Shown: one piece after another, positions 8,174 to 53,026 of the stretch
Numbering within the stretch: position 1 is the first letter of the stretch
Layout: each line of letters opens with the position of its first letter
Assembly: GCF_988242995.1 (NCBI RefSeq)
Contig: NZ_OZ547043.1
DNA: 64,000 bases
Direction: 5' to 3' (one strand)
Made by a program: the position numbers and the translations under genes
The notes under the pieces: generated by a model
What the model saw: only the letters and a program-made list of their open reading frames with translations
What the model was told of the DNA's origin: nothing
Database searches by the model: none

Positions 8174-8175
8174 TC

Positions 8176-10734: not shown

Positions 10735-11196
10735 TCATGCTGCCGGGCTTTGTCCCTTTACCAGTTGGCTTAAATTCACCGGCACATTGTTTTCAATGGC
10801 GGTGTATAAGCTGTCGTAAACGCCAGCGATTTTTTCGAGATAGTGTTCCAGAACCTGTTCGCGATCGCGGATGTTGACCTTGCCATCAATCATGCCGTCA
10901 ATGCTCAGTTGCGCCTGCGCAATCCGCTGTTTGTCTTCACCATCTTTTGTTTCGACGTAATACTCGATGGTGTGGCTGTTAAAGCCATCCGCCAGGGTGA
11001 CGTAAATGCGAAAATGTTCAAAAAGGACGAAACAGAGTTCTTTGTCCGGCGCGCAGCTCATGGCGTGATGCAGGCGCGCTTTCGATAACGTGATCCCCTG
11101 AACCAGCGAATTGCAGTAGATGTGCCACTGGTCCTGTAGGCGACGATGCCGCTGTGCGATGTAATCGGCTTTCTCGCTTATTTCCCAAATAGTCAT
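10735..11196 (-). CDS. hycA: Formate hydrogenlyase regulatory protein (FhlA antagonist)
   Basis: 153-aa ORF MTIWEISEKADYIAQRH... matches HycA. Confidence 0.93.
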   Translation of the reverse strand: MTIWEISEKADYIAQRHRRLQDQWHIYCNSLVQGITLSKARLHHAMSCAPDKELCFVLFEHFRIYVTLADGFNSHTIEYYVETKDGEDKQRIAQAQLSIDGMIDGKVNIRDREQVLEHYLEKIAGVYDSLYTAIENNVPVNLSQLVKGQSPAA

Positions 11197-11233
11197 TGTC
11201 AGGTTACCCGTTTAACAGAGATGCCAGCTTTAA

Positions 11234-11249
11234 GCATTTTCTGTGCCAA
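11234..11249 (-). promoter_or_regulatory. Candidate sigma-54 (-24/-12) promoter of the hyc operon
   Basis: Minus-strand TGGCAC-N5-ATGCT about 40 nt upstream of hycA ATG; hyc is known to be FhlA/sigma-54 dependent. Confidence 0.5.
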
Positions 11250-11361
11250 CTTTTAATTAATTGTTATTAAACAGATTTTTAAGATAAAGATGAATTTCGT
11301 CGCCGTGTCGACGTGTCATTTCGACATCATCGACATTATTCATCGCAGGGATAATCAACAC

Positions 11362-11377
11362 TGGCACAATTATTGCT
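11362..11377 (+). promoter_or_regulatory. Candidate sigma-54 (-24/-12) promoter of the hyp operon
   Basis: TGGCAC-N5-TTGCT about 30 nt upstream of hypA ATG. Confidence 0.55.
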
Positions 11378-11407
11378 TGTAGCTGGCAATAGTTAATGGG
11401 AGGCGAT

Positions 11408-11758
11408 ATGCACGAAATAACCCTCTGCCAACGGGCACTGGAATTGATCGAACAGCAGGCCGCAAAACACGGCGCAAAACGCGTAACTGGGGTCTGGCTC
11501 AAAATTGGCGCATTTTCTTGTGTCGAAACCAGCTCTCTTGCCTTTTGTTTTGATCTGGTTTGCCGCGGCAGCGTGGCGGAAGGTTGTAAACTGCACCTCG
11601 AAGAACAAGAGGCCGAATGCTGGTGTGAAACATGCCAACAGTATGTGACGCTACTGACCCAGCGCGTCCGCCGCTGTCCACAGTGTCATGGTGACATGCT
11701 ACAGATTGTGGCAGACGACGGTTTACAGATTCGGCGGATAGAAATAGACCAGGAGTGA
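11408..11758 (+). CDS. hypA: Hydrogenase nickel incorporation protein
   Basis: ORF 11396..11758; start taken at MHEITLCQRALE (116 aa); CxxC...CxxC zinc motif. Confidence 0.93.
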   Translation: MHEITLCQRALELIEQQAAKHGAKRVTGVWLKIGAFSCVETSSLAFCFDLVCRGSVAEGCKLHLEEQEAECWCETCQQYVTLLTQRVRRCPQCHGDMLQIVADDGLQIRRIEIDQE

Positions 11759-11761
11759 GCG

Positions 11762-12634
11762 ATGTGTACAACATGCGGTTGCGGTGAAGGCAACCTGTAT
11801 ATCGAGGGTGATGAACATAACCCTCATTCCGCGTTTCGTAGCGCGCCATTTGCCCCGGCGGCACGCCCGAAGATGAAAATCACCGGCATTAAAGCGCCTG
11901 AATTTACCCCCAGCCAGACTGATGAAGGCGACCTGCATTACGGTCATGGCGTAGCGGGCACACACGCGCCGGGCATGAGCCAGCGTCGAATGCTGGAAGT
12001 TGAAATTGACGTGCTGGACAAAAACAACCGTCTGGCTGAACGCAACCGCGCGCGCTTTGCTGCCCGCAAGCAACTGGTGCTCAACCTGGTTTCCAGCCCT
12101 GGTTCCGGTAAAACCACCCTGCTGACGGAAACCTTAATGCGCCTGAAAGACAGCGTTCCGTGCGCAGTTATTGAAGGCGACCAGCAAACCGTGAACGATG
12201 CCGCGCGCATTCGTGCTACCGGCACACCAGCGATTCAGGTGAACACCGGTAAAGGCTGCCATCTTGACGCACAGATGATTGCCGACGCCGCGCCGCGCCT
12301 GCCACTGGACGATAACGGTATTCTGTTTATCGAAAACGTCGGCAACCTCGTATGCCCGGCCAGCTTCGATCTCGGTGAAAAACACAAAGTGGCGGTGCTT
12401 TCCGTTACCGAAGGTGAAGACAAACCGCTGAAATATCCGCATATGTTTGCCGCAGCTTCGCTGATGCTGCTCAACAAAGTTGACTTGCTGCCGTATCTCA
12501 ACTTTGACGTTGAGAAGTGCATCGCCTGCGCCCGCGAAGTCAATCCAGAAATTGAAATCATCCTTATTTCCGCCACCAGCGGCGAAGGGATGGACCAGTG
12601 GCTGAACTGGCTGGAGACACAGCGATGTGCATAG
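11762..12634 (+). CDS. hypB: Hydrogenase maturation GTPase / nickel-binding protein
   Basis: 290-aa ORF; N-terminal CTTCGCGEG motif, P-loop GSGKTT. Confidence 0.93.
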
Positions 12635-12897
12635 GCGTTCCCGGCCAGATCCGCACCATTGACGGCAACCAGGCGAAAGTCGACGTCTGCGGCATTCAGC
12701 GCGACGTCGATTTAACGTTAGTCGGCAGCTGCGATGAAAACGGTCAGCCACGCGTGGGCCAGTGGGTACTGGTTCACGTTGGCTTTGCCATGAGCGTAAT
12801 TAATGAAGCCGAAGCGCGCGACACTCTCGACGCCTTACAAAACATGTTTGACGTTGAGCCGGATGTCGGTGCGCTGTTGTATGGCGAGGAAAAATAA
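12625..12897 (+). CDS. hypC: Hydrogenase maturation chaperone
   Basis: Start at [11 protein letters not shown] (90 aa), the conserved HypC N-terminus; 10-nt overlap with hypB. Confidence 0.92.
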
Positions 12898-14018
12898 TGC
12901 GTTTTGTTGATGAATATCGCTCGCCGGAACAGGTGATGCAGTTAATTGAGCATCTGCGCGAACGTGCTTCACATCTCTCTTACACCGCCGAACGCCCTCT
13001 GCGGATTATGGAAGTGTGCGGTGGTCATACCCACGCCATTTTTAAATTCGGCCTCGACCAGTTGCTGCCGGAAAACGTTGAGTTTATCCACGGTCCCGGT
13101 TGCCCGGTGTGTGTACTGCCGATGGGTAGAATCGACACCTGCGTGGAGATTGCCAGCCATCCGGAAGTCATCTTCTGTACCTTTGGCGACGCCATGCGCG
13201 TGCCGGGGAAACAGGGATCGCTGTTGCAGGCAAAAGCACGCGGTGCCGATGTGCGCATCGTTTACTCGCCGATGGATGCGTTGAAACTGGCGCAGGAGAA
13301 TCCAACCCGCAAAGTGGTGTTCTTCGGCTTAGGTTTTGAAACCACCATGCCGACGACGGCCATCACTCTGCAACAGGCGAAAGCGCGTGATGTGCAGAAT
13401 TTTTACTTCTTCTGCCAGCATATTACGCTTATCCCGACGCTGCGCAGTTTGCTGGAACAGCCGGATAACGGTATCGACGCGTTTCTTGCGCCCGGTCACG
13501 TTAGTATGGTTATCGGCACTGATGCCTATAATTTTATCGCCAGCGATTTTCATCGTCCGCTGGTGGTCGCTGGTTTCGAACCCCTTGATCTACTGCAAGG
13601 CGTGGTGATGCTGGTGGAGCAGAAAATAGCGGCCCACAGCAAGGTAGAGAATCAGTATCGTCGGGTGGTGCCGGATGCCGGTAACCTGCTGGCGCAACAG
13701 GCGATTGCCGATGTGTTCTGTGTCAACGGCGACAGCGAATGGCGCGGCTTAGGCGTGATTGAATCTTCTGGTGTACACCTGACGCCGGATTATCAACGAT
13801 TCGATGCCGAAGCGCATTTCCGCCCGGCACCGCAGCAGGTCTGCGATGACCCGCGTGCGCGTTGTGGCGAAGTATTAACGGGCAAATGTAAGCCGCATCA
13901 ATGCCCGCTATTTGGTAACACCTGTAATCCTCAAACCGCGTTTGGTGCGCTGATGGTTTCCTCCGAAGGAGCGTGCGCCGCGTGGTATCAGTATCGTCAG
14001 CAGGAGAGTGAAGCGTGA
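12897..14018 (+). CDS. hypD: Hydrogenase maturation factor
   Basis: 373-aa ORF; CGGHTH and CPVC motifs. Confidence 0.93.
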   Translation: MRFVDEYRSPEQVMQLIEHLRERASHLSYTAERPLRIMEVCGGHTHAIFKFGLDQLLPENVEFIHGPGCPVCVLPMGRIDTCVEIASHPEVIFCTFGDAMRVPGKQGSLLQAKARGADVRIVYSPMDALKLAQENPTRKVVFFGLGFETTMPTTAITLQQAKARDVQNFYFFCQHITLIPTLRSLLEQPDNGIDAFLAPGHVSMVIGTDAYNFIASDFHRPLVVAGFEPLDLLQGVVMLVEQKIAAHSKVENQYRRVVPDAGNLLAQQAIADVFCVNGDSEWRGLGVIESSGVHLTPDYQRFDAEAHFRPAPQQVCDDPRARCGEVLTGKCKPHQCPLFGNTCNPQTAFGALMVSSEGACAAWYQYRQQESEA

Positions 14019-15025
14019 ATAATATCCAACTCGCCCACGGCAGCGGCGGCCAGGCGATGCAGCAATTAATCAACAGCCTGTTTATGGAAGCCTTTGCCAA
14101 CCCGTGGCTGGCAGAGCAGGAAGATCAGGCCCGTCTTGATCTGGCGCAGCTGGTAGCGGAAGGCGACCGTCTGGCGTTCTCCACCGACAGTTACGTCATT
14201 GACCCGCTGTTCTTTCCTGGCGGTAATATCGGCAAGCTGGCGATTTGCGGCACAGCCAATGACGTTGCGGTCAGTGGCGCTATTCCGCGCTATCTCTCCT
14301 GTGGCTTTATCCTCGAAGAAGGATTGCCGATGGAGACACTGAAAGCCGTCGTGACCAGCATGGCAGAAACCGCCCGCGCGGCAGGCATTGCCATCGTCAC
14401 TGGCGATACTAAAGTGGTGCAGCGCGGCGCGGCAGATAAACTGTTTATCAACACCGCTGGCATGGGCGCAATTCCGGCGAATATTCACTGGGGCGCACAG
14501 ACGCTAACCGCAGGCGATGTATTGCTGGTTAGCGGTACACTCGGCGACCACGGGGCGACTATCCTTAACCTGCGTGAGCAGCTGGGGCTGGATGGCGAAC
14601 TGGTCAGCGACTGTGCGGTACTAACGCCGCTTATTCAGACGCTGCGTGACATTCCCGGCGTGAAAGCGCTGCGTGATGCCACCCGTGGTGGTGTGAACGC
14701 GGTAGTTCATGAGTTCGCGGCAGCCTGCGGTTGCGGTATTGAAATTTCAGAAGCGGCACTGCCGGTTAAACCTGCTGTGCGCGGCGTTTGCGAACTGCTG
14801 GGACTGGACGCCCTTAACTTTGCCAACGAAGGCAAACTGGTGATCGCCGTTGAACGCAACGCGGCAGAGCAAGTGCTGGCAGCGTTACATTCCCATCCAC
14901 TGGGAAAAGACGCGGCGCTGATTGGTGAAGTGGTGGAACGTAAAGGTGTTCGTCTTGCCGGTCTGTATGGCGTGAAACGAACCCTCGATCTACCGCACGC
15001 CGAACCGCTTCCGCGTATATGCTAA
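14015..15025 (+). CDS. hypE: Hydrogenase maturation carbamoyl dehydratase
   Basis: 336-aa ORF ending in the conserved PRIC C-terminus. Confidence 0.93.
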   Translation: MNNIQLAHGSGGQAMQQLINSLFMEAFANPWLAEQEDQARLDLAQLVAEGDRLAFSTDSYVIDPLFFPGGNIGKLAICGTANDVAVSGAIPRYLSCGFILEEGLPMETLKAVVTSMAETARAAGIAIVTGDTKVVQRGAADKLFINTAGMGAIPANIHWGAQTLTAGDVLLVSGTLGDHGATILNLREQLGLDGELVSDCAVLTPLIQTLRDIPGVKALRDATRGGVNAVVHEFAAACGCGIEISEAALPVKPAVRGVCELLGLDALNFANEGKLVIAVERNAAEQVLAALHSHPLGKDAALIGEVVERKGVRLAGLYGVKRTLDLPHAEPLPRIC

Positions 15026-15098
15026 TAAAATTCTAAATCTCCTATAGTTAGTCAATGACCTTTTGCACCGCTTTGCGGTGCTTTCCTGGAAGAACAAA

Positions 15099-17177
15099 AT
15101 GTCATATACACCGATGAGTGATCTCGGACAACAAGGGTTGTTCGACATCACTCGGACACTATTGCAGCAGCCCGATCTGGCCTCGCTGTGTGAGGCTCTT
15201 TCGCAACTGGTAAAGCGTTCTGCGCTCGCCGACAACGCGGCTATTGTGTTGTGGCAAGCGCAGACTCAACGTGCGTCTTATTACGCATCGCGTGAAAAAG
15301 ACACCCCCATTAAATATGAAGACGAAACTGTTCTGGCACACGGTCCGGTACGCAGCATTTTGTCGCGCCCTGATACGCTGCATTGCAGTTACGAAGAATT
15401 TTGTGAAACCTGGCCGCAGCTGGCCGCAGGTGGGCTATACCCCAAATTTGGTCACTATTGCCTGATGCCACTGGCGGCGGAAGGGCATATTTTTGGTGGC
15501 TGTGAATTTATTCGTTATGACGATCGCCCCTGGAGCGAAAAAGAGTTCAATCGTCTGCAAACATTTACGCAGATCGTTTCTGTCGTCACCGAACAAATCC
15601 AGAGCCGCGTCGTCAATAATGTCGACTATGAGTTGTTATGCCGGGAGCGCGATAACTTCCGCATCCTGGTTGCCATTACCAACGCGGTGCTTTCCCGCCT
15701 GGATATGGACGAACTGGTCAGCGAAGTCGCCAAAGAAATCCATTACTACTTCGACATTGACGATATCAGCATCGTCTTACGCAGCCACCGTAAAAACAAA
15801 CTCAACATCTACTCCACTCACTATCTTGATAAACAGCATCCCGCCCACGAACAGAGCGAAGTCGATGAAGCCGGAACCCTCACCGAACGCGTGTTCAAAA
15901 GCAAAGAGATGCTGCTGATTAATCTCCACGAGCGGGACGATTTAGCCCCCTATGAACGCATGTTGTTCGACACCTGGGGCAACCAGATTCAAACCTTGTG
16001 CCTGTTACCGCTGATGTCTGGCGACACCATGCTGGGCGTGCTGAAACTGGCGCAATGCGAAGAGAAAGTGTTTACCACTACCAATCTGAATTTACTGCGC
16101 CAGATTGCCGAACGTGTGGCAATCGCTGTCGATAACGCCCTCGCCTATCAGGAAATCCATCGTCTGAAAGAACGGCTGGTTGATGAAAACCTCGCCCTGA
16201 CCGAGCAGCTCAACAATGTTGATAGTGAATTTGGCGAGATTATTGGCCGCAGCGAAGCCATGTACAGCGTGCTTAAACAAGTTGAAATGGTGGCGCAAAG
16301 TGACAGTACCGTGCTGATCCTCGGTGAAACTGGCACGGGTAAAGAGCTGATTGCCCGTGCTATCCATAATCTCAGTGGGCGTAATAATCGCCGCATGGTC
16401 AAAATGAACTGCGCGGCGATGCCTGCCGGATTGCTGGAGAGCGATCTGTTTGGTCATGAGCGTGGGGCTTTTACCGGTGCCAGCGCCCAGCGTATCGGTC
16501 GTTTTGAACTGGCGGATAAAAGCTCCCTGTTCCTCGACGAAGTGGGCGATATGCCACTGGAGTTACAGCCGAAGTTGCTGCGTGTATTACAGGAACAGGA
16601 GTTTGAACGTCTCGGCAGCAACAAAATCATTCAGACGGACGTGCGTCTAATCGCCGCAACTAACCGCGATCTGAAAAAAATGGTCGCCGACCGTGAGTTC
16701 CGTAGCGATCTCTATTACCGCCTGAACGTATTCCCGATTCACCTGCCGCCACTACGCGAGCGTCCGGAAGATATTCCGCTGCTGGCGAAAGCCTTTACCT
16801 TCAAAATTGCCCGTCGTCTGGGGCGCAATATCGACAGCATTCCTGCCGAGACGCTGCGCACCTTGAGCAACATGGAGTGGCCGGGTAACGTACGCGAACT
16901 GGAAAACGTCATTGAGCGCGCGGTATTGCTAACACGCGGCAACGTGCTGCAGCTGTCATTGCCTGATATTGCTTTACCGGAGCCTGAAACGCCGCCTGCC
17001 GCAACGGTTGTCGCCCAGGAGGGCGAAGATGAATATCAGTTGATTGTTCGCGTGCTGAAAGAAACCAACGGCGTGGTTGCCGGGCCTAAAGGCGCTGCGC
17101 AACGTCTGGGGCTGAAACGCACGACTCTGCTGTCACGGATGAAGCGACTGGGAATTGATAAATCGGCATTGATTTAA
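15099..17177 (+). CDS. fhlA: Formate hydrogenlyase transcriptional activator (sigma-54-dependent enhancer-binding protein)
   Basis: ORF 15063..17177; start taken at MSYTPMSDLG (692 aa); AAA+ motifs GETGTGKE and GAFTGA. Confidence 0.93.
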   Translation: MSYTPMSDLGQQGLFDITRTLLQQPDLASLCEALSQLVKRSALADNAAIVLWQAQTQRASYYASREKDTPIKYEDETVLAHGPVRSILSRPDTLHCSYEEFCETWPQLAAGGLYPKFGHYCLMPLAAEGHIFGGCEFIRYDDRPWSEKEFNRLQTFTQIVSVVTEQIQSRVVNNVDYELLCRERDNFRILVAITNAVLSRLDMDELVSEVAKEIHYYFDIDDISIVLRSHRKNKLNIYSTHYLDKQHPAHEQSEVDEAGTLTERVFKSKEMLLINLHERDDLAPYERMLFDTWGNQIQTLCLLPLMSGDTMLGVLKLAQCEEKVFTTTNLNLLRQIAERVAIAVDNALAYQEIHRLKERLVDENLALTEQLNNVDSEFGEIIGRSEAMYSVLKQVEMVAQSDSTVLILGETGTGKELIARAIHNLSGRNNRRMVKMNCAAMPAGLLESDLFGHERGAFTGASAQRIGRFELADKSSLFLDEVGDMPLELQPKLLRVLQEQEFERLGSNKIIQTDVRLIAATNRDLKKMVADREFRSDLYYRLNVFPIHLPPLRERPEDIPLLAKAFTFKIARRLGRNIDSIPAETLRTLSNMEWPGNVRELENVIERAVLLTRGNVLQLSLPDIALPEPETPPAATVVAQEGEDEYQLIVRVLKETNGVVAGPKGAAQRLGLKRTTLLSRMKRLGIDKSALI

Positions 17178-17221
17178 CAGATGTGGTTATACTCGATCAA
17201 CATTCAATGAAAGGAGGCAGT

Positions 17222-17650
17222 ATGGCAGTTTCAGCAAGAAATCAATTAACCGGAACAGTTAGCGCAGTAGCAATGGGCGCTGTGAATGATGAAGTAGAAC
17301 TGACGCTGGCAGGTGGTGCAAAGCTGGTGGCAATTGTGACTCACAGCAGCCAGCAAGCGCTGGGTCTGGCGAAAGGGAAAGAAGCGATTGCCCTGATTAA
17401 AGCCCCGTGGGTAACGCTGGCAACGGAAGACTGTGGACTGAAATTCTCTGCTCGCAACCAGTTTGCTGGCAGCGTGTCGACAATCACCGAAGGAGCAGTG
17501 AACGCCACTGTCCATATCAAAACGGATGCGGGTTTTGAAATTGTGGCAGTGGTAACAAATGAAAGTCAGGATGAAATGAAACTCACCACTGGCTCGCGCG
17601 TTATTGCATTGATCAAAGCATCAGCCATCCTGATTGCCACCAAAGCGTAA
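17222..17650 (+). CDS. Molybdate/molybdenum-pterin-binding protein, tandem TOBE (Mop) domains
   Basis: ORF 17183..17650; start at ATG 17222 behind AAGGAGG; two repeated ~70-aa TOBE-like halves (ARNQLTGTV... / ARNQFAGSV...). Confidence 0.7.
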   Translation: MAVSARNQLTGTVSAVAMGAVNDEVELTLAGGAKLVAIVTHSSQQALGLAKGKEAIALIKAPWVTLATEDCGLKFSARNQFAGSVSTITEGAVNATVHIKTDAGFEIVAVVTNESQDEMKLTTGSRVIALIKASAILIATKA

Positions 17651-17661
17651 GCGCCTTATTT

Positions 17662-17698
17662 GCCGGAGAGTATGGCTCTCCGGCAGATTTATTTCTTT
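17662..17698. terminator. Bidirectional rho-independent terminator between mop-like gene and ygbA
   Basis: Hairpin GCCGGAGAG-TATGG-CTCTCCGGC followed by T-rich run; overlaps ygbA stop codon. Confidence 0.6.
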
Positions 17699-18033
17699 GG
17701 ACGATATTTTTCTGGCAACTCCGGCACCGGACGCTTGTCATCGATGAGATGACGCACGGTTAAGATCGGATGACGCCACAGCATTCGCGGCCCAGCCCAA
17801 CGCATAATCTGTTTCATCTCTTCACGCTTTGCAGGCTGGTAACAGTGCACCGGACACTGCTTACAGGCTGGTTTCTCTTCGCCGAACACACATTTATCCA
17901 GCCGCTTTTGCGCGTAAGTAAACAACGCCTCATAATGCTCCGGCTCCGCTGACGCCTGCGGGCATTTCGCTTGATAAAGATCGATCATTTTTTTAATCGT
18001 CAGTTTTTCACGAGAGATACGCTTGCCGGACAT
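17689..18033 (-). CDS. ygbA: Nitrosative-stress inducible protein YgbA
   Basis: 114-aa ORF MSGKRISREKLTIKKMIDLYQAKCP... with CxxC pairs, matching YgbA. Confidence 0.88.
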   Translation of the reverse strand: MSGKRISREKLTIKKMIDLYQAKCPQASAEPEHYEALFTYAQKRLDKCVFGEEKPACKQCPVHCYQPAKREEMKQIMRWAGPRMLWRHPILTVRHLIDDKRPVPELPEKYRPKK

Positions 18034-18050
18034 GCTGCCTCCATCTCATT

Positions 18051-18079
18051 AAGATGCATTTATATTACAACTTAATCTT
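18051..18079. promoter_or_regulatory. Candidate NsrR operator upstream of ygbA
   Basis: AAGATGCATTT half-site (perfect) plus a degenerate partner half, 18-46 nt upstream of ygbA ATG. Confidence 0.4.
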
Positions 18080-18319
18080 AAAGGGCACTATGACTCTAAA
18101 GAAGAAGGGTTAGCCAACCGATACAATTTTGCGTACTTGCTTCATAAGCATCACGCAAAAGCTGCAAAACAGCATCTTTCCCGGAATCACCATCAAGAAC
18201 TCGCCGTTCGCTTCTTCCCCTGAAATGATTAACTCCGGTATCATGTGCGCCTTATGTGATTACAACGAAAATAAAAACCATCACACCCCATTTAATATCA
18301 GGGAACCGGACATAACCCC

Positions 18320-20881
18320 ATGAGTGCAATAGAAAATTTCGATGCCCATACGCCCATGATGCAGCAATATCTCAAGCTGAAAGCCCAGCATCCCGAGATC
18401 CTGCTGTTTTACCGGATGGGTGATTTTTATGAACTGTTTTATGACGACGCAAAACGCGCGTCGCAACTGCTGGATATTTCACTGACCAAACGCGGTGCTT
18501 CGGCGGGAGAGCCGATCCCGATGGCGGGGATCCCCTACCATGCGGTGGAAAACTACCTCGCCAAACTGGTGAATCAGGGCGAGTCCGTTGCCATCTGCGA
18601 ACAAATTGGCGATCCGGCGACCAGCAAAGGTCCAGTTGAGCGCAAAGTTGTGCGTATCGTTACGCCAGGCACCATCAGCGATGAAGCCCTGTTACAAGAG
18701 CGCCAGGACAATCTGCTGGCGGCTATCTGGCAGGACAGTAAAGGTTTCGGCTACGCGACGCTGGATATCAGTTCCGGTCGTTTTCGCCTGAGCGAACCGG
18801 CTGACCGGGAAACGATGGCGGCAGAACTGCAACGCACTAATCCGGCGGAACTGCTATATGCAGAAGATTTTGCTGAGATGTCGCTGATTGAAGGTCGTCG
18901 CGGTCTGCGCCGTCGTCCGCTGTGGGAGTTTGAAATCGACACCGCGCGCCAGCAGTTGAATCTGCAATTTGGCACCCGCGATCTGGTCGGTTTTGGCGTC
19001 GAGAACGCGCCGCGCGGACTTTGTGCTGCCGGTTGTCTGTTGCAGTATGCGAAAGATACCCAACGTACGACTCTGCCGCATATTCGTTCTATCACTATGG
19101 AACGTGAGCAGGACAGCATCATTATGGATGCCGCGACGCGTCGTAACCTGGAAATTACCCAGAACCTGGCGGGCGGTGCGGAAAACACGCTGGCTTCAGT
19201 GCTCGACTGCACTGTAACGCCGATGGGTAGTCGTATGCTGAAACGCTGGCTGCATATGCCAGTGCGCGATACCCGCGTGTTGCTTGAGCGCCAGCAAACT
19301 ATTGGCGCATTGCAGGATTTCACCGCCGAGCTACAGCCGGTGCTGCGTCAGGTCGGCGACCTGGAACGTATTCTGGCGCGTCTGGCTTTACGAACTGCTC
19401 GCCCACGCGATCTGGCCCGTATGCGTCACGCTTTCCAGCAACTGCCGGAGCTGCGTGCGCAGTTAGAAAATGTCGATAGCGCTCCGGTACAGGCGCTACG
19501 TGAAAAAATGGGCGAGTTTGCCGAGCTGCGCGATCTGCTGGAGCGGGCAATCATCGACACACCGCCAGTGCTGGTACGCGACGGTGGTGTTATCGCATCG
19601 GGCTATAACGAAGAGCTGGATGAGTGGCGCGCGCTGGCTGACGGCGCGACCGATTATCTGGAGCGTCTGGAAGTCCGCGAGCGTGAACGTACTGGCCTGG
19701 ACACGCTGAAAGTCGGCTTTAACGCGGTTCATGGTTATTACATTCAGATCAGCCGTGGACAAAGCCATCTGGCACCCATCAACTACATGCGTCGCCAGAC
19801 GCTGAAAAACGCCGAGCGCTACATCATTCCAGAGCTAAAAGAGTACGAAGATAAAGTTCTCACCTCAAAAGGCAAAGCACTGGCACTGGAAAAACAACTT
19901 TATGAAGAGCTGTTCGACCTGCTGTTGCCGCATCTGGAAGCGTTGCAACAGAGCGCGAGCGCGCTGGCGGAACTTGATGTGCTGGTTAACCTGGCGGAAC
20001 GGGCCTATACCCTGAACTACACCTGCCCGACCTTCATTGATAAACCGGGTATTCGCATCACCGAAGGTCGCCATCCGGTGGTTGAACAGGTACTGAACGA
20101 GCCATTTATCGCCAACCCGCTGAACCTGTCGCCGCAGCGTCGCATGTTGATCATTACCGGTCCGAATATGGGCGGTAAAAGTACCTATATGCGCCAGACC
20201 GCACTGATTGCGCTGATGGCCTACATCGGCAGCTATGTACCGGCACAAAAAGTCGAGATTGGACCTATCGACCGTATCTTCACCCGCGTAGGGGCAGCGG
20301 ATGATCTGGCATCCGGGCGTTCAACCTTTATGGTGGAGATGACCGAAACCGCCAATATTCTGCATAACGCCACCGAGTACAGTCTGGTGCTGATGGATGA
20401 GATTGGGCGCGGGACGTCCACTTACGATGGTCTGTCGCTGGCGTGGGCGTGCGCGGAAAATCTGGCGAATAAGATTAAAGCGTTGACGTTGTTTGCCACC
20501 CACTATTTCGAGCTGACCCAGTTACCGGAGAAAATGGAAGGCGTCGCCAACGTGCATCTCGATGCACTGGAGCACGGCGACACCATTGCCTTTATGCACA
20601 GCGTGCAGGATGGCGCGGCGAGCAAAAGCTACGGCCTGGCGGTTGCAGCTCTGGCGGGCGTGCCAAAAGAGGTTATTAAGCGCGCACGGCAAAAACTGCG
20701 TGAGCTGGAAAGCATTTCGCCGAACGCCGCCGCGACACAGGTCGATGGCACGCAGATGTCGCTGCTTTCAGTGCCGGAAGAAACCTCGCCAGCGGTCGAA
20801 GCACTGGAAAATCTCGACCCGGATTCACTGACTCCGCGTCAGGCGCTGGAATGGATTTATCGCTTGAAGAGTCTGGTGTAA
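18320..20881 (+). CDS. mutS: DNA mismatch repair protein MutS
   Basis: 853-aa ORF; [25 protein letters not shown]...; Walker [10 protein letters not shown]. Confidence 0.97.
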
Positions 20882-20886
20882 TAACA

Positions 20887-20915
20887 ATTCCCGATAGTCT
20901 TTTGCTATCGGGAAT
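20887..20915 (+). terminator. Possible mutS terminator hairpin
   Basis: ATTCCCGATAG-N7-CTATCGGGAAT inverted repeat directly after the mutS stop; weak U-tract. Confidence 0.35.
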
Positions 20916-20986
20916 ATTAACGACAACTGACGAATCAAATAAAAACACCCTGTATAATAGGAAATCTTATTTTACAGGGTAAAACC

Positions 20987-21643
20987 ATGCCATCTACACG
21001 CTATCAAAAAATTAATGCCCATCACTATCGTTATATATGGGCCGTTGGTGATATTCATGGTGACTATCAATTATTACAATCCCGCTTACATCAACTCTCT
21101 TTTTGCCCTGAAACCGACTTACTTATTTCTGTCGGCGATAATATTGATCGTGGGCCGGAGAGTCTTAACGTGCTGCGCCTGCTAAACCAGCCCTGGTTTA
21201 CATCGGTTAAAGGCAACCATGAAGCGATGGCGCTTGATGCATTCGAAACTGGCGATGGAAATATGTGGCTTGCCAGCGGCGGCGACTGGTTCTTTGAATT
21301 AAATGAGACGGAACAACAAGAAGCAATAAATCTGTTGCTGAAATTTCATCGCCTTCCACATATTATTGAAATCACTAACGACATAATAAAATATGTCATC
21401 GCACATGCAGATTATCCAGGGAATGAATATCTCTTTGGCAAAGAAATAGCGGAGAGAGAACTACTCTGGCCTGTTGATCGTGTGCAGAAATCGCTTAATG
21501 GCGAGTTACAACAAATAAACGGCGCTGATTATTTTATATTTGGACATATGATGTTTGATAACATTCAGACGTTCGCAAACCAGATTTATATTGATACCGG
21601 ATCGCCGAAAAGCGGGCGGCTGTCATTTTATAAAATAAAGTAG
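20987..21643 (+). CDS. pphB: Serine/threonine protein phosphatase 2
   Basis: 218-aa ORF with GDIHG and GDNIDRG metallophosphatase motifs. Confidence 0.92.
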   Translation: MPSTRYQKINAHHYRYIWAVGDIHGDYQLLQSRLHQLSFCPETDLLISVGDNIDRGPESLNVLRLLNQPWFTSVKGNHEAMALDAFETGDGNMWLASGGDWFFELNETEQQEAINLLLKFHRLPHIIEITNDIIKYVIAHADYPGNEYLFGKEIAERELLWPVDRVQKSLNGELQQINGADYFIFGHMMFDNIQTFANQIYIDTGSPKSGRLSFYKIK

Positions 21644-27978: not shown

Positions 27979-29406
27979 TTATTTACGTGCGGCCAGCATA
28001 GCAGTCAGTTTTTCAGCCCAGGCTTTGGTTTCCGGTAAATCCACCACCGGCTGGCTGTAGTGACCACGGTTGTCCGGGGCGACAGGCGTGGTGGCGTCGA
28101 TAATCAGCTTGTCGGTGATCCCCGCCGGGCTTGAGCCAGGGTCGAGTTCCAGCACGGACATATTTGGCAACTGCACCAGGTCGCCTGCCGGGTTCACTTT
28201 CGAGGAGAGCGCCCACATCACCTGCGGCAGGTTGAACGGATCAACGTCTTCATCGACCATAATCACCATCTTCACGTAGCCCAGACCGTGCGGCGTGGTC
28301 ATTGCACGCAGGCCCACCGCGCGGGCAAAGCCGCCGTAGCGTTTTTTGGTGGAGATAATCGCCAACAGGCCGTGGGTGTACATGGCGTTTACCGCCTGCA
28401 CTTCCGGGAACTCGGCTTTCAGTTGCTGATACAGCGGCACGCAGGTGGCAGGCCCCATCAGGTAGTCGATTTCGGTCCACGGCATACCAAGATAGAGCGA
28501 TTCGAAAATCGGTTTGGTACGGTAAGAGACTTTATCGATACGCACCACGGTCATGTTACGCCCGCCGGAGTAGTGACCGGTAAACTCACCGAACGGCCCT
28601 TCAATCTCACGTTTACGACTTTCGATAACCCCTTCGAGGATCACTTCCGAGCCCCACGGCACATCAAAACCGGTCAGCGGGGCGGTGGCGATCGGGTACG
28701 GGCTTTCGCGCAGCGCGCCCGCCATTTCGTACTCAGACTGATCGTATTTCAGCGGCGTGGCGCCCATCAGGATGATGATCGGATCGTTACCTAGGGTGAT
28801 GGCAATCGGCAGATCTTCACCGCGTTCTTCCGCTTTATGCAGATGCAGAGCGATATCGTGCATCGGCACCGGTTGCAGGCCGAGCTTACGTTTGCCCTTC
28901 ACTTCCATACGATAGATACCGACGTTCTGCTTGCCGAAGTTATCCGGGTCGAGCGGATCGCGGGAAACCACGCACGCTTTGTCGAGATAGAAACCGCCAT
29001 CGCCATCGTTTAAACGAAACAGCGGCAGGATATCGAACAGGTTGATCTCGTCGCCATCGACGGTGTTCTGCGCCCAGGCTGGATTGGCGCGGCGCTCCGG
29101 GGCAATCGGGAAGTTATCCCAGCGGCGGATAAACTCATCAATCTGCTTTTTGACCGGGGTGTTTGGCGGCAGGCCGAGGGAAATCGCGTGGTTCTGCCAG
29201 GAACCGATGGCATTCATCGCCACACGGGCATCGGTAAAGCCGCGAATATTGTCAAACCACAGCGCGGGCGCGCCGTCGCCGATACGCCCGGTGGCGTTAG
29301 CTGCTGCTGCCAGATCCGGTTCCGCGTTCACCTCTTCGCTGATTTTCAGTAACTGGCCGTGGTCATCAAGCGCCTGTAAAAAGCTGCGTAAATCATCAAA
29401 TGCCAT
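27979..29406 (-). CDS. ecdC: UbiD-family (prFMN-dependent) aromatic acid decarboxylase
   Basis: 475-aa ORF with UbiD-like length and translation; operon context with UbiX homolog. Confidence 0.8.
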   Translation of the reverse strand: MAFDDLRSFLQALDDHGQLLKISEEVNAEPDLAAAANATGRIGDGAPALWFDNIRGFTDARVAMNAIGSWQNHAISLGLPPNTPVKKQIDEFIRRWDNFPIAPERRANPAWAQNTVDGDEINLFDILPLFRLNDGDGGFYLDKACVVSRDPLDPDNFGKQNVGIYRMEVKGKRKLGLQPVPMHDIALHLHKAEERGEDLPIAITLGNDPIIILMGATPLKYDQSEYEMAGALRESPYPIATAPLTGFDVPWGSEVILEGVIESRKREIEGPFGEFTGHYSGGRNMTVVRIDKVSYRTKPIFESLYLGMPWTEIDYLMGPATCVPLYQQLKAEFPEVQAVNAMYTHGLLAIISTKKRYGGFARAVGLRAMTTPHGLGYVKMVIMVDEDVDPFNLPQVMWALSSKVNPAGDLVQLPNMSVLELDPGSSPAGITDKLIIDATTPVAPDNRGHYSQPVVDLPETKAWAEKLTAMLAARK

Positions 29407-29999
29407 TATTCATTCTCCTGAGAAAAATTCCGGACCTGCGGCAATCCTTGCCAGCGCCTGGCGTGGGGATGTTCGAGGCCAAATTGATCCAGCACGCGGG
29501 CTACCACGTGGTGGACAATGTCATCTACCGTTTCGGGATGGTTATAAAAGGCAGGCATCGGCGGCACCATCGCCACGCCCATGCGTGAAAGTGCGAGCAT
29601 ATTTTCGAGATGGATGGTGCTAAGCGGCATTTCACGCGGCACCAGCACTAGTTTGCGGCCTTCTTTGAGCACGACGTCCGCCGCGCGCCCTACCAGGCCA
29701 TCGGCGTAACCGACACGGATACCGGCGAGCGTTTTCATACTGCACGGAATAACGATCATGCCGTCGGTACGAAAGGAACCTGAGGAGATGGTCGCCGCCT
29801 GATCCGCCGGGTTATGACTGAAGTCTGCGAGGGCAGCAACATCGCGAGCGCTGTAAGGCGTTTCCAGTTCAATGGTGGTTTTCGCCCACTTCGACATCAC
29901 CAGATGAGTCTCGACATTCGGCATCTCCCGCAGCGCTTGCAGTAATGCCACCCCAAGAGGCGCACCGGTAGCCCCTGTCATCCCGACGATCAGTCTCAT
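29406..29999 (-). CDS. ecdB: UbiX/Pad1-family flavin prenyltransferase
   Basis: 197-aa ORF MRLIVGMTGATGAPLGVALLQAL... typical of UbiX/Pad1. Confidence 0.82.
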   Translation of the reverse strand: MRLIVGMTGATGAPLGVALLQALREMPNVETHLVMSKWAKTTIELETPYSARDVAALADFSHNPADQAATISSGSFRTDGMIVIPCSMKTLAGIRVGYADGLVGRAADVVLKEGRKLVLVPREMPLSTIHLENMLALSRMGVAMVPPMPAFYNHPETVDDIVHHVVARVLDQFGLEHPHARRWQGLPQVRNFSQENE

Positions 30000-30016
30000 T
30001 GTTTATTCTCTTAATT

Positions 30017-30030
30017 GTTCGTATACGAAC
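30017..30030. promoter_or_regulatory. Perfect 14-bp palindrome GTTCGTATACGAAC in divergent promoter region; candidate MarR-family operator
   Basis: Read directly; lies between ecdB start (29999) and the MarR-like gene start. Confidence 0.4.
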
Positions 30031-30107
30031 GTTATTATTAAAATACGCCTCTGTTTTCATCGCGGCAAGCACTGAAAAGTAACAACATCTTCTTCGTCAC
30101 TGAAAAA

Positions 30108-30122
30108 CCGCTATGATAGCGG
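30108..30122. promoter_or_regulatory. Inverted repeat CCGCTAT-G-ATAGCGG; second candidate operator
   Basis: 7-bp perfect arms around one central base, about 25 bp upstream of the MarR-like start. Confidence 0.3.
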
Positions 30123-30145
30123 CAGATAGTTTGCCCGGAGTTTAC

Positions 30146-30553
30146 ATGGCGTTACGAAATAAAGCGTTCCATCAGTTACGACAGCTTTTTCAGCAGCACA
30201 CGGCTCGCTGGCAGCACGAGTTACCTGACCTCACCAAACCACAGTACGCGGTGATGCGCGCCATTGCTGATAAGCCTGGTATCGAACAGGTGGCACTGAT
30301 AGAAGCAGCAGTCAGCACCAAAGCAACGCTGGCAGAAATGTTGGCAAGAATGGAAAATCGTGGCTTAGTCAGACGTGAACATGACGCCGCTGACAAGCGG
30401 CGTCGCTTTGTCTGGCTGACTGCCGAAGGAGAAAAGGTACTTGCTGCGGCGATCCCCATTGGTGACAGTGTGGATGAGGAATTTTTGGGGCGTTTGAGTG
30501 CAGAAGAGAAGGAGCTGTTTATGCAGTTGGTGCGCAAGATGATGAGCAAATAG
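30146..30553 (+). CDS. MarR/SlyA-family transcriptional regulator
   Basis: ORF 30113..30553; start taken at ATG 30146 behind GGAG; winged-helix region; divergent from decarboxylase operon. Confidence 0.75.
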   Translation: MALRNKAFHQLRQLFQQHTARWQHELPDLTKPQYAVMRAIADKPGIEQVALIEAAVSTKATLAEMLARMENRGLVRREHDAADKRRRFVWLTAEGEKVLAAAIPIGDSVDEEFLGRLSAEEKELFMQLVRKMMSK

Positions 30554-30620
30554 GATGCTGATTGCCGGGTAGGACGCTGACGAGTCTTATCCAGGCGACA
30601 AAACACACCGACTTCCCAAA

Positions 30621-30657
30621 CAAAAGAAAAAGGCCAGCCTCGCTTGAGACTGGCCTT
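30621..30657 (-). terminator. rpoS rho-independent terminator
   Basis: Minus strand AAGGCCAG-loop-CTGGCCTT followed by TTTTTCTTTTGTTT, directly downstream of rpoS stop. Confidence 0.6.
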
Positions 30658-30673
30658 TCTGACAGATGCTTAC

Positions 30674-31665
30674 TTACTCGCGGAACAGCGCTTCGATATT
30701 CAGCCCCTGCGTTTGCAGGATTTCGCGCAAACGGCGCAGGCCTTCAACCTGAATCTGGCGAACACGTTCACGGGTGAGGCCAATTTCACGACCTACATCT
30801 TCCAGTGTTGCCGCTTCGTACCCCAGCAAACCGAATCGACGTGCCAGTACTTCACGCTGTTTGGCGTTCAGCTCGAACAGCCATTTGACGATGCTCTGCT
30901 TCATATCGTCATCTTGCGTGGTATCTTCCGGACCGTTCTCTTTTTCATCGGCCAGGATGTCCAGCAACGCTTTTTCGGAATCACCACCCAGCGGGGTGTC
31001 TACCGAGGTAATGCGCTCGTTAAGACGAAGCATACGGCTGACGTCATCAACTGGCTTATCCAGTTGCTCTGCGATCTCTTCCGCACTTGGTTCGTGGTCC
31101 AGTTTATGGGACAACTCGCGTGCGGTTCGCAGGTAAACGTTCAGCTCCTTTACGATGTGAATCGGCAAACGAATAGTACGGGTTTGGTTCATAATCGCCC
31201 GTTCGATCGTCTGGCGAATCCACCAGGTTGCGTATGTTGAGAAGCGGAAACCACGTTCCGGGTCAAACTTCTCTACCGCGCGGATCAGCCCCAGGTTGCC
31301 CTCTTCGATCAGGTCCAGCAACGCCAGACCACGATTGCCATAACGGCGGGCAATTTTTACCACCAGACGCAAGTTACTCTCGATCATCCGGCGGCGGGAG
31401 GCAACATCTCCACGCAGTGCGCGACGCGCAAAATAAACTTCTTCTTCGGCCGTTAACAGTGGTGAATAACAATCTCACCAAGGTAAAGCTGAGTCGCGTC
31501 CAACACACGCTGTGTGGCTCCCTGCGATAACAGTTCCTCTTCGGCCAAATCGTTATCACTGGGTTCCTCTTCTACTAAGGCCTTTTCGTCAAAAACCTCA
31601 ACTCCGTTCTCATCAAATTCCGCATCTTCATTTAAATCATGAACTTTCAGCGTATTCTGACTCAT
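30674..31665 (-). pseudogene. rpoS: RNA polymerase sigma factor RpoS (sigma-S), disrupted by a -1 frameshift
   Basis: N-terminal [17 protein letters not shown]...LYLGEI reads in ORF 31453..31701 and stops after IVIHHC; the rest ([10 protein letters not shown]...ALFRE) is ORF 30674..31387 in another frame; span is 992 nt, not a multiple of 3. Confidence 0.8.
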
Positions 31666-31727
31666 AAGGTGGCTCCTACCCGTGATCCCTTGACGGAACA
31701 TTCAAGCAAAAGCCTGGTTCCGCCGAT

Positions 31728-32867
31728 TTATCGCTGCGGCAAATAACGCAGCGGGTTTACGGATTTCCCCTTGTAACGAATTTCAAAATGCAAGCGTGTT
31801 GAACTGGTTCCGGTGCTACCCATGGTTGCTATTTTTTGCCCCGCCTTCACTTCTTGTTGTTCCCGGACCAGCATTGTGTCGTTATGGGCGTAGGCACTCA
31901 GGTAATCATCATTATGTTTGATGATAATCAGATTACCGTAGCCGCGCAGCGCGTTACCGGCATAAACAACGCGGCCATCTGCGGTCGCGATAATTGCCTG
32001 TCCTTTGCTGCCTGCGATATCAATCCCCTTGTTGCCCCCCTCAGAAGCGCCAAAGGTTTCGATCACTTTGCCCTCAGTCGGCCAGCGCCAGGTGGAGATA
32101 GGCGTACTGGTTGATGTACTGCTGACAGTCGGCTCGGTTGTGCTTGCTGTTGGTACCGTTACAGGCGCTGTGACCGTGGTCGCAGTTGGCTTGTTGTTCG
32201 GCAACATTTTGTTAGCACTCTGTTCACCCGAAGACTCAGAATACGTAATTGTCGGTTGCGAAGCAACAGCAACGGTGGAATTTTGTGCAGGCTTGATCAC
32301 AACTCCTTGCTCTGCTGCATCGGCCTGGGTAATGGCATTTCCGCCAGTGATTGGCGTACCGGAAGCATTACCCACCTGTAAGGTCTGACCGACGTTCAGC
32401 GCGTATGGTGCCTGAATATTGTTGCGCTGAGCAAGGTCACGGAAATCGTTGCCAGTAATCCAGGCGATATAGAAAAGTGTGTCGCCTTTTTTCACGGTAT
32501 AGGTACTGCCGCTATAACTGCCTTTCGGAATGTTCCCATACTGACGGTTGTAGACGATGCGTCCGTTTTCCATCTGTACCGGCTGCTGAGCTACTGGCTG
32601 CACCGGCTGGATTTGCGGTTGTTGAGTTGCCTGAATTTGTGGCTGCTGTACCGGCTGAATTTGCGGTTGCTGAGCTGTAGACGTCGTCCCCATTTTCGGC
32701 GGCGGCGTAATCAACATACCAGAATTGGTATTTGCAGGCGCATTGCCATTAACGGAGCTGACCGGGGCCGGTGGATTTGAAGTGTCAGAACAGCCTGCCA
32801 GCCATAGCGAAACCAGTGACAAAGCCGCAATGCGGCGAACGGTGAATTTTGGGCTTCCCGCGCTCAT
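31728..32867 (-). CDS. nlpD: Murein hydrolase activator lipoprotein NlpD (LysM + LytM domains)
   Basis: 379-aa ORF with lipobox LAGC and Q/P-rich repeat region. Confidence 0.95.
32606..32677. repeat. Three imperfect ~24-bp tandem repeats inside nlpD encoding QQPQIQ(P/A)V repeats
   Basis: Repeated CTGAATTTGCGGTTGCTGAG-like units read from sequence. Confidence 0.6.
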
Positions 32868-37499: not shown

Positions 37500-38105
37500 T
37501 CAGGATCTGATAATATCGTTCTGTCTCAACAGATCTAATAATTGCTGTACCAAATTTGTTACTAATTGTTCACCATTGAGATGAATTTCTGCCGATTCAG
37601 GCGCTTCGTAAACGGAATCTATTCCCGTAAAGTTGCGCAGTTCACCGGCACGCGCTTTCTTATATAAGCCTTTTGGATCGCGGGCTTCGCAAATCGCCAG
37701 CGGCGTATCGACAAACACTTCGATAAAGCGCCCTTCTCCTACGCGTTCACGAACCATCTGGCGTTCGGCGCGGTGTGGCGAGATAAATGCGGTCAGCACC
37801 ACCAGTCCGGCTTCAACCATCAAATTCGCCACTTCACCGACGCGACGGATATTCTCTTTACGATCGGCATCGCTAAAACCGAGATCGCTGCATAATCCGT
37901 GGCGAACATTGTCGCCATCCAGCAGATACGTACTGACGCCGAGTTTATGTAACGCCTCCTCCAGCGCCCCGGCGACCGTTGATTTACCGGACCCGGAGAG
38001 GCCGGTAAACCACAGCACTACACCACGATGACCGTGGTGTAGCTCGCGTTGTTGTACAGTGACTGGATGGCTATGCCAGACGACGTTTTCGTCATGCAGC
38101 GCCAT
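37500..38105 (-). CDS. cysC: Adenylylsulfate (APS) kinase
   Basis: 201-aa ORF with P-loop GLSGSGKST. Confidence 0.95.
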
Positions 38106-39532
38106 TATTTATCCCCCAGTAAATCGCGCGCGCCCCAGTGTGGAAAGTGGCGGCGAACCAGGGCATTCAATTCCAGTTCGAATGCACTGAATTCAGATGG
38201 CGCAGTAGTTGCCTGGCTAACTGGCTCGTGCACCATACCGGCACCTACGGTCACATTACTCAGGCGATCGATAAAAATCAGCCCACCGGTAACCGGGTTT
38301 TGCTGATAACGATCTAACACCAGTGGCTCGTCAAAAGTGAGATCCACCAGGCCGATGCCGTTCAGCGGCAGGTTTTCAACTTCGCGTTGGGTAAGGTTAT
38401 TAATATCAACCTGATAACGAATGCCATCAACACGAGCACGCGTCTTCTTACCGGCAATTTTGATGTCGTAACTCTGGCCTGGGGAAAGCGGCTGTTCCGC
38501 CATCCATACCACATCCACCGACGCGCTCTGCACAGCCGGTAACGCTTCGTCTGCCGCCAGCAGCAGATCGCCACGGCTGATGTCGATCTCATCCGTCAGC
38601 ACCAGGGTGATCGCTTCTCCGGCAAAGGCTTCTTCGCGATCGCCATCAAAAGTCACGATCCGCGCGACGTTTGATTCCACACCAGAGGGCAGCACTTTTA
38701 CACGTTGCCCGACTTCCACGCGACCGGATGCCAGCGTTCCGGCGTAACCACGAAAATCGAGATTCGGGCGGTTAACATACTGCACCGGGAAGCGCATTGG
38801 CTGGGCATCCACCACTCGCTGCATCTCCACGGTTTCCAGCACTTCGAGCAATGTTGGACCGCTGTACCACGGCATACTTTCACTTTGCGAAGCCACGTTG
38901 TCACCTTCCAGTGCGGAGAGCGGCACAAAGCGGATATCCAGATTACCCGGCAGCTGCCCGGCAAAGGTCAAATAATCTTCACGAATACGGGTGAACGTCT
39001 CTTCACTGTAATCCACCAGATCCATTTTGTTGATCGCCACGACCAGATGTTTGATCCCCAACAGTGTGGAGATAAAACTGTGACGACGGGTTTGATCGAG
39101 CACGCCTTTACGGGCATCGATCAGTAAGATCGCCAGTTCACATGTCGATGCGCCAGTCGCCATATTGCGGGTGTACTGCTCGTGCCCTGGGGTGTCGGCG
39201 ATAATAAATTTACGCTTCTCGGTAGAGAAATAACGGTAAGCCACGTCAATGGTGATGCCCTGTTCGCGCTCAGCTTGCAGGCCGTCCACCAGCAGTGCCA
39301 GATCCAGTTTTTCGCCCTGGGTGCCGTGACGTTTACTGTCGTTATGCAGCGATGAGAGCTGATCTTCGTAGATTTGGCGGGTATCGTGCAGCAGGCGACC
39401 AATCAGGGTACTTTTGCCGTCATCGACGCTACCACAGGTCAGAAAACGCAGCAGGCTTTTATGTTGTTGCGCAATCATCCAGGCTTCGACGCCGCCTTCA
39501 TTGGCGATTTGTTGTGCAAGTGCGGTGTTCAT
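38105..39532 (-). CDS. cysN: Sulfate adenylyltransferase subunit 1 (GTPase)
   Basis: 475-aa ORF with GTP-binding motifs GSVDDGKST and DTPGH. Confidence 0.95.
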
Positions 39533-41731: not shown

Positions 41732-41812
41732 TGGGTTTGAAAATGAGAGCTGGGAGTTCTACCGCAGGGGCGGGGAATTCTAAGTGATATCCATCATCGC
41801 ATCCAGTGCGTC

Positions 41813-43000
41813 CGGTTTATCCCCGCTGACGCGGGGAACACGCTTTTCCCCACGCGTCCAGATCTTCGACTGGCGGTTTATCCCCGCTGGCGCGGGGAAC
41901 ACTCATTAAATTGTTTTTCCCGATCCCAGCTCTGCGGTTTATCCCCGCTGGCGCGGGGAACACCTGGAGCGCAGAAAGTTTGATATCGAAAATGCCGGTT
42001 TATCCCCGCTGGCGCGGGGAACACAGTTAACAACCCGCGCCGAACAAGCCCGACAACGGTTTATCCCCGCTGGCGCGGGGAACACCAGGTTCGTAAAGGT
42101 GAACACGGCACGACGGCCGGTTTATCCCCGCTGGCGCGGGGAACACGCGTCGCCATTCTATTAGCTTTTCCTCATCACCGGTTTATCCCCGCTGGCGCGG
42201 GGAACACCCGACAATCTCCGCCTCCAGTCGGTCGACCTGCGGTTTATCCCCGCTGGCGCGGGGAACACTGTGCCCGACTGCGTGCCGCGTCGAGCGCCTG
42301 CGGTTTATCCCCGCTGGCGCGGGGAACACTTCGCCGCCATCATCCTGTGGTGCCAGTTGACCGGTTTATCCCCGCTGGCGCGGGGAACACATACCGCAGC
42401 AAATTACGGTTCCAGAAACGCGCGGTTTATCCCCGCTGGCGCGGGGAACACTGACACGTTAAACGGTGCGTTGTCGTCGCTGTCGGTTTATCCCCGCTGG
42501 CGCGGGGAACACCCTGCCGCCCCCTTTAGCCCATATGGGGGCGGCGGTTTATCCCCGCTGGCGCGGGGAACACTTCAACATTACGAAACGGGATCACGCC
42601 GCTGACGGTTTATCCCCGCTGGCGCGGGGAACACCGGCTCCGCGTCGACATAAAAGTCCTCGGGATCGGTTTATCCCCGCTGGCGCGGGGAACACATATT
42701 TCGCCCCGTCACGCTGAATCAGCCAGCCGGTTTATCCCCGCTGGCGCGGGGAACACTCGCTTTTAAAGCGCCGGAGGAAAGTAAGCTCCGGTTTATCCCC
42801 GCTGGCGCGGGGAACACTAGCATAAATTACCCGATCAGATCGCGGACATCGGTTTATCCCCGCTGGCGCGGGGAACACTCGATCAAAAATTTACAACCAA
42901 AGGCTTCAACCGGTTTATCCCCGCTGGCGCGGGGAACACTCCCCGGTATCAGAAATAATTCCCTGCTCGATCGGTTTATCCCCGCTGGCGCGGGGAACAC
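41813..43000 (-). CRISPR. Type I-E CRISPR array: 20 repeats of 29 bp, 19 spacers of 32 bp, period 61 bp; transcribed from the cas2-proximal leader
   Basis: Repeat CGGTTTATCCCCGCTGGCGCGGGGAACAC at 41813, 41874, ... 42972; leader-distal repeat is degenerate (CTGACG instead of CTGGCG). Confidence 0.98.
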
Positions 43001-43096
43001 ACTAAGCATACATAACTGTTTTTAAACAAATTTATTCCGCATCAACAATCTACCAACTAAATTAAAACATTTCCTTATTTTTAAAGAACAGATAAC
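43001..43096 (-). promoter_or_regulatory. CRISPR leader (AT-rich, between cas2 and first repeat)
   Basis: AT-rich 96-bp spacer between cas2 stop and leader-proximal repeat. Confidence 0.8.
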
Positions 43097-53005: not shown

Positions 53006-53026
53006 AGATTCCTCACTGTTTGCCTT

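Follow-up and report, generated by a model that had tools for sequence, protein, structure and literature searches.

A single-base deletion in rpoS of an Escherichia coli contig: a probable null allele found repeatedly in public assemblies

The gene rpoS codes for sigma-S (sigma-38), the general stress and stationary-phase sigma factor. In the stretch of E. coli DNA analysed here, which is 64,000 nucleotides long and is referred to below as the window, rpoS is divided between two reading frames. This raises the question whether the split is a genuine mutation of the organism or an error of the assembly, whether any active sigma-S could still be produced from the divided gene, and under what circumstances such an allele arose. 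An earlier note, made from the sequence alone, had interpreted the split as the loss of a single base and the gene as a loss-of-function allele, with the caveat that the lesion might be a sequencing or assembly error.

The rpoS locus and its lesion

The genes truD, surE, pcm, nlpD and rpoS follow one another in the window in the order found in annotated genomes, with rpoS in its conserved position, and all genes neighbouring rpoS are of full length. The upstream partner nlpD (31728-32867, minus strand) is intact at 379 amino acids, as judged from the list of open reading frames and the annotation of syntenic genomes, and it is within nlpD that the main rpoS promoter is carried. The native ribosome-binding site of rpoS, AGGAG (31673-31677, minus strand), is preserved, as is the intrinsic terminator (30627-30660, minus strand), in which a T run follows a stem of 15 pairs. 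On its 3' side rpoS is followed by the MarR and hydroxyarylic-acid-decarboxylase variant of the rpoS-ygbN variable region.

The disrupted gene occupies positions 31665-30674 on the minus strand and measures 992 nt including its native ATG and TAA, the length given in the earlier note, compared with 993 nt for intact rpoS. Alignment to a reference rpoS, which the note had proposed as a check, was performed with the intact gene of E. coli 7/2 (WP_000081550.1, L001:3096-4088). All 992 bases of the window gene match over the 993 columns, and the lone difference is a one-base gap. The gap column falls in the GG pair at rpoS nt 196-197, in codon Gly66 (GGT), and the surviving G is situated at window position 31470 (minus strand). 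The window contains the sequence GAGATTGTTATTCACC, and the intact gene of E. coli 7/2 contains GAGATTGGTTATTCACC. These are, to the base, the two sequences that the note had given, and its statement that one G of a GG pair is missing near 31470 holds for both the position and the base. A comparison of the whole window with the complete genome of strain TUM2330 (about 98-99% identity) places the identical indel in rpoS (ΔG at window position 31470). A 71-nt query across the junction matched 5,411 genome records, of which 5,407 have the extra G (98.6% identity), and this indicates that the deletion is not a chance pattern. Codon 33 of the window gene is the wild-type GAG (Glu) and not the K-12 variant.

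The N-terminal open reading frame (31453-31665, minus strand) comprises 70 codons from the ATG at 31665. It encodes RpoS residues 1-65, followed by the out-of-frame residues VIHHC (31470-31456) and the stop codon TAA (31455-31453), in agreement with the ending IVIHHC and the stop described in the note. The note had also placed the last 237 codons in a different frame. Such an open reading frame, ending in ALFRE, is present at 31387-30674, but it is merely the stretch 3' of the first start codon. The RpoS frame itself resumes directly after the deletion (residues 67-330; 30674-31469, minus strand) and is closed upstream by a TGA at 31477-31475, and its first start codon is the ATG of Met94 at 31387-31385.

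Both fragments match the RpoS profile NF004207 of NCBIfam, for which the equivalog cut-off is 394 bits. The N-terminal fragment covers profile positions 1-67 of 329 with 61 bits, which is below the cut-off, and the C-terminal fragment covers positions 94-329 with 478.1 bits, which is above it. The C-terminal fragment also exceeds the cut-off of TIGR02394 (417.8 bits compared with 378.7 bits). The repaired, intact protein reaches 604.6 bits on NF004207. On this protein the Pfam domains are located at residues 56-88 (region 1.2), 94-163 (region 2), 174-248 (region 3) and 262-315 (region 4), and the 237-codon open reading frame contains regions 2, 3 and 4. No single open reading frame of about 330 codons carries all four regions, as the frame breaks at codon 66; because region 1.2 extends over residues 56-88, it is cut after the first 10 of its 33 residues. 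The stop after 70 residues precedes region 2, which starts at residue 94, so that the truncation falls before the core-binding and promoter-recognition regions. By these matches the locus is rpoS, but as a predicted pseudogene and not as a functional member of the RpoS family.

The density of substitutions relative to TUM2330 is patchy across the window, with 27-49 per kb at 19000-21000, 28000-31000 and 38000-39000 and 2-8 per kb elsewhere. The dense patches coincide with the 3' part of mutS, the decarboxylase/MarR variable region and part of cysN, and rpoS (31-32 kb) shows zero substitutions. The pattern in the mutS-rpoS region looks like recombination mosaicism. The mutS gene itself (18320-20881, plus strand), situated 10 kb from rpoS, is intact with 853 codons, a length equal to that of the annotated reference, and thus no mutS mutator background is indicated for the rpoS frameshift within the window.

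Elsewhere in the window, a type I-E CRISPR array of 20 repeats with a 61-nt period (41792-43001) adjoins a complete cas3-casABCDE-cas1-cas2 cluster. The whole array was not found in any complete RefSeq E. coli genome, and the best matches, from porcine ETEC strains and K_EC180, contain only part of it. A 25-kb query from the window found no near-identical genome among the same complete genomes. As the array is only partly shared, the lineage appears to be poorly represented among complete genomes. The sole Rfam match at the gathering threshold in the window is a sok antitoxin RNA (RF01794, 111.7 bits) at 51990-52147 on the minus strand, between cas3 and cysH, a position that agrees with an annotated Hok/Gef gene at the same place in TUM2330. 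In TUM2330 a copy of IS1397 lies between ygcQ and ygcP; it is absent from the window (about 59543-59580), and no insertion sequences were seen across the 64 kb.

The deletion in other assemblies and its neighbours

The deletion at nt 196-197, referred to as ΔG196, is absent from the 5,426 complete RefSeq E. coli genomes searched with a 1,161-bp query and with the 71-nt junction query. Every top match to the 1,161-bp query carries the extra G. Two matches to the 71-nt query with at least 99% identity are probably partial-coverage matches, since they are not ranked first and exactly two records have a coverage below 80%. An exact scan with a 26-nt junction sequence likewise gave no match in the GTDB species-representative genomes. 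The absence from complete RefSeq E. coli genomes indicates that the allele is rare within any one lineage.

Among draft and run-level assemblies, the exact 70-residue product was found in 32 public contigs (45 blocks in the contig index). Ten of these loci were fetched (L007-L016), and nine of them show 18-78 substitutions relative to the window in the 4 kb that they share with it. Three different contexts occur downstream of rpoS in the loci with ΔG196: MarR with the decarboxylase, a flavodoxin with a metallo-beta-lactamase-fold protein, and ygbN directly. The window and the ten loci together (11 sequences) contain at least eight distinct synonymous haplotypes of rpoS, and the sites that vary among them flank the deletion on either side (nt 163, 264, 270, 357, 462, 549, 564, 573, 732, 819 and others). 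The number of haplotypes and the three downstream contexts indicate that ΔG196 arose repeatedly and independently.

Any -1 deletion at about nt 100-212 leads to a 70-residue product that ends at the same TAA. Because product length and stop are shared, the numbers of contigs found for different deletion classes are directly comparable, although they are inflated by clonal sampling and by repeated assembly of the same reads. Twenty classes between nt 144 and 212 (window about 31522-31454) were tested, and 19 of them exist in public assemblies, an indication of how extensively the possible rpoS nulls have already been sampled. The largest is the class covering CC183, TT185 and GG187, with 62 contigs (85 index blocks). 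All ten loci fetched from this class (L017-L026) proved to be a ΔT at nt 185-186, which changes CCTTGG to CCTGG. The deletion creates a Dcm site (CCWGG), and in the window the corresponding positions, 31480-31481, are intact. The deletion of GGG144-146 and the class at nt 149-151 occur in 26 contigs each, two counts that may be clonal. Smaller numbers were found for TTT179-181 (8 contigs), A204 or CC205 (6), TT194 (5), GG165 (3), TT198 (1) and TT201 (1), and the seven single-base and three two-position one-product classes gave 4, 4, 2, 2, 2, 1, 1, 1, 1 and 0 contigs. A further 70-residue product ending in GYSPL (59 contigs) was dropped as a control, as a nonsense change of L71 from TTA to TAA or TGA gives the identical protein.

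Three classes associated with runs, GGG144-146, TT185-186 and GG196-197, thus reach 26-62 contigs, and all fifteen other unambiguous classes in nt 165-212 have between 0 and 8 each. The haplotypes of ΔG196 alone, at least eight in number, equal or exceed the total count of every unambiguous class in nt 165-212 except ΔT185. From these counts, ΔG196 and ΔT185 are clearly over-represented compared with nearby deletion sites.

The pairs at nt 185-186 and 196-197 fall one in each copy of the direct repeat TTGGT(GAGA)TTGGT, which adjoins an inverted copy, TCACCA. Local misalignment at the TTGGT repeats might raise the rate of deletion, but there is no supported mechanism for the bias. A hairpin of TGGTGA with TCACCA, which would hold GG196-197 in its loop, was considered as a cause of the recurrence but is not supported, as it is weak and not significant (-3.9 kcal/mol, z = -1.7), with 13 of 200 shuffled sequences folding as well. 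It is conceivable, but we regard it as rather doubtful, that the two pairs are true mutational warm spots for single-base deletion and not targets equal to their neighbours on which selection acts. If they are, they would bias which rpoS nulls emerge first in stored or starving cultures. The uneven spectrum of local deletions, with ΔG196 and ΔT185 in excess, is the only mildly new point of this analysis, and the uneven counts could serve the study of local deletion rates.

Artefact, rescue or loss of function

Single-base indels are the commonest assembly error, and ΔG196 occurs in 0 of the 5,426 complete genomes, observations that would suit a consensus or polishing error in the sequence of an organism whose rpoS is intact. 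In the comparison with TUM2330, window positions 1-19322 contain 265 substitutions and no indels, and positions 52670-59546 contain 140 substitutions and no indels. Six single-base indels are present between 19223 and 39220: the rpoS deletion itself, four in the intergenic stretch on the 3' side of rpoS (30603-30631), and one in the nlpD-pcm interval (32949). The other indels in the window are located in CRISPR spacers or intergenic DNA, or are paired and compensate each other within a few bases in the divergent cas3, the open reading frame of which is of full length (899 amino acids). The rpoS deletion is the only uncompensated intragenic indel in the 64 kb, which argues that the assembly is not indel-prone, and its site is a run of two bases, whereas read errors concentrate in long homopolymers. 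Furthermore, contig ERR15423959_24 (L015) of Logan, which uses a pipeline of its own to assemble reads directly, has the deletion and matches the window with 100% identity along the entire 6,213 bp that were fetched. This contig may come from an independent isolate of the clone, or it may be an independent confirmation based on the same reads; under either origin it argues against a polishing error. Dozens of unrelated assemblies in NCBI, ENA and Logan contain the identical allele as well, which is what a real, recurring mutation would be expected to produce. An artefact is considered very unlikely on these grounds, and the lesion is probably genuine and present in the organism. The caveat in the earlier note is weakened by the lack of any other gene-breaking indel and by the separately assembled contig, though not removed.

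Active sigma-S might nevertheless still be produced from a gene with a genuine split if translation re-initiated at Met94, if the known internal restart were used, or if ribosomes shifted back into frame. Regions 2-4 are intact in the C-terminal open reading frame, and rpoS alleles with an amber codon at position 33 do give a partly active Δ1-53 sigma-S by internal restart, according to the account in PMC2763269, which cites Subbarayan and Sarkar 2004. From that description and the codon present in the sequence, this restart is placed at the GTG of Val54 (31504-31506, minus strand). Restart at codon 54 helps when the stop is upstream of it. Here both the lesion (codon 66) and the stop (codon 71) come after codon 54, so the restart product would meet the same frameshift. 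In the C-terminal frame there is no ATG, GTG or TTG between the TGA at 31477-31475 and the ATG of Met94, which is located 65 nt beyond the premature TAA. No usable Shine-Dalgarno sequence is present in the 25 nt before this ATG (31388-31412, minus strand), where the lone GGAG stands at a distance of about 20 nt; in the interval -18 to -4, the best duplex with the 3' end of 16S rRNA has an energy of +1.5 kcal/mol, compared with -6.5 kcal/mol for the native start. Even if a product were made from Met94, it would lack region 1.2. No slippery heptamer is present at GAG ATT GTT ATT, and a split conserved in the manner of prfB or dnaX was not found, the gene being unsplit in 5,407 of the 5,411 matching records; together these rule out a conserved programmed frameshift. 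Mutant CL106A, which has an equal frame, stop and downstream open reading frame, was catalase-deficient (PMC2700278). Programmed frameshifting, re-initiation at Met94 and restart at codon 54 were all rejected as rescue routes. Translation might conceivably re-initiate at a low level, either at Met94 or from a non-canonical codon, but production of active sigma-S by any of these routes appears extremely improbable.

The reading that we prefer, and hold to be highly likely, is that the window carries a genuine -1 frameshift null allele of rpoS. With one G of the codon 66 pair lost, ribosomes starting at the native ATG would produce residues 1-65 followed by VIHHC and then stop. The predicted peptide of 70 residues would consist of the acidic N terminus and the first 10 of the 33 residues of region 1.2, and would contain neither region 2, responsible for core binding and -10 recognition, nor region 3, nor region 4, responsible for -35 recognition. 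As regions 2-4 are missing, such a peptide could not act as a sigma factor. The remainder of rpoS, although intact, would stay untranslated, with its frame closed upstream by the TGA and Met94 lying beyond the stop with no Shine-Dalgarno sequence to serve it. The loss of function claimed in the earlier note is therefore well supported, as the product would lack regions 2-4 entirely and region 1.2 for the most part, and no rescue route is visible.

The sigma-S protein would thus be expected to be absent from the strain and the RpoS regulon to be lost, with low HPII catalase activity and no glycogen staining. Survival of acid, oxidative stress and starvation should be poor and the rdar colony form lost. 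In exchange, growth on poor carbon sources should be improved, and selection is presumably the reason why the allele is found.

Origin of the allele and comparison with known rpoS nulls

Loss-of-function alleles of rpoS are common, as the note had stated, and frameshift nulls are well described (PMC3074542, PMC3484664, PMC2700278). They are selected during storage in stabs or on filter disks, in long stationary phase, in the chemostat and during growth on succinate (PMC3484664, PMC2700278), and also within infected patients (PMC7845604). The gene is a textbook target of loss-of-function selection, and ΔG196 is nothing new in kind; the exact allele is itself already present in public assemblies.

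As rpoS in the window is otherwise identical to the commonest intact allele, the lesion appears to be young. A real but recent allele may have arisen during laboratory storage or subculture, or in a subpopulation of a mixed culture, from a wild isolate that was rpoS-positive. In a carefully stored collection RpoS-null strains were rare, and the only ones found had frameshifts specific to the stock of one laboratory; stabs and shipping on filter disks select for such alleles (PMC3484664). Of the long-stored ECOR strains tested, 29% were RpoS-null (PMC3074542). Frameshifts in rpoS have other sources too, however, as they appear within patients (PMC7845604) and in nutrient-limited settings outside the laboratory, and the sequence neither dates nor places the event. 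We consider an origin in the laboratory to be quite possible, if somewhat short of probable, and it is compatible with the null-allele explanation. The stock may also not represent the original isolate, and phenotypes of the strain that concern stress survival, biofilm formation, acid resistance or virulence are to be read as those of an RpoS-null strain.

The published ECOR lesions in rpoS include ΔT76, an A inserted after nt 83, ΔA269, ΔT392 and ΔA518, among others (PMC3074542). ΔG196 is present neither in the ECOR mutation table (PMC3074542) nor in the alignments of Suc++ mutants (PMC2700278). The nulls of the ECOR strains, of M114 and M646 (PMC3484664) and of within-patient isolates (PMC7845604) resemble the window allele in having a small lesion in an otherwise wild-type rpoS and an early stop before or within the sigma regions, and in being strain-specific and recent. 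The ECOR nulls differ in the position of the lesion and in that the loss of RpoS was seen on the protein, which was undetectable in the strains with frameshifts (PMC3074542), whereas for the window allele this loss is predicted from the sequence.

The amber-33 alleles of K-12, as presented in PMC2763269 with citation of Subbarayan and Sarkar 2004 and of Rajkumari and Gowrishankar 2002, share with the window an early stop followed by an intact coding sequence for regions 2-4. In contrast to the window allele, their lesion precedes the restart at codon 54, which by that account yields a partly active protein that includes region 1.2. In the window the Glu33 codon is wild-type and the lesion is downstream of the restart, at codon 66, where the restart would be of no help.

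The closest counterpart is CL106A, a catalase-deficient mutant of verotoxigenic E. coli selected on succinate (Suc++), of which the product ends in LYLVRLVIHHC (Dong et al. 2009, PMC2700278, supplementary file 2). It differs from the window allele in having been selected deliberately in the laboratory and in that, from a match of its product to public DNA, it most probably lost a T from CCTTGG and not a G from TTGGTT. Its -1 frameshift, 11 nt upstream of ΔG196, leads into the same shifted frame, the same TAA and a product of 70 residues, and leaves the same untranslated open reading frame from Met94. By analogy, the catalase deficiency of CL106A supports a null phenotype for the allele in the window.
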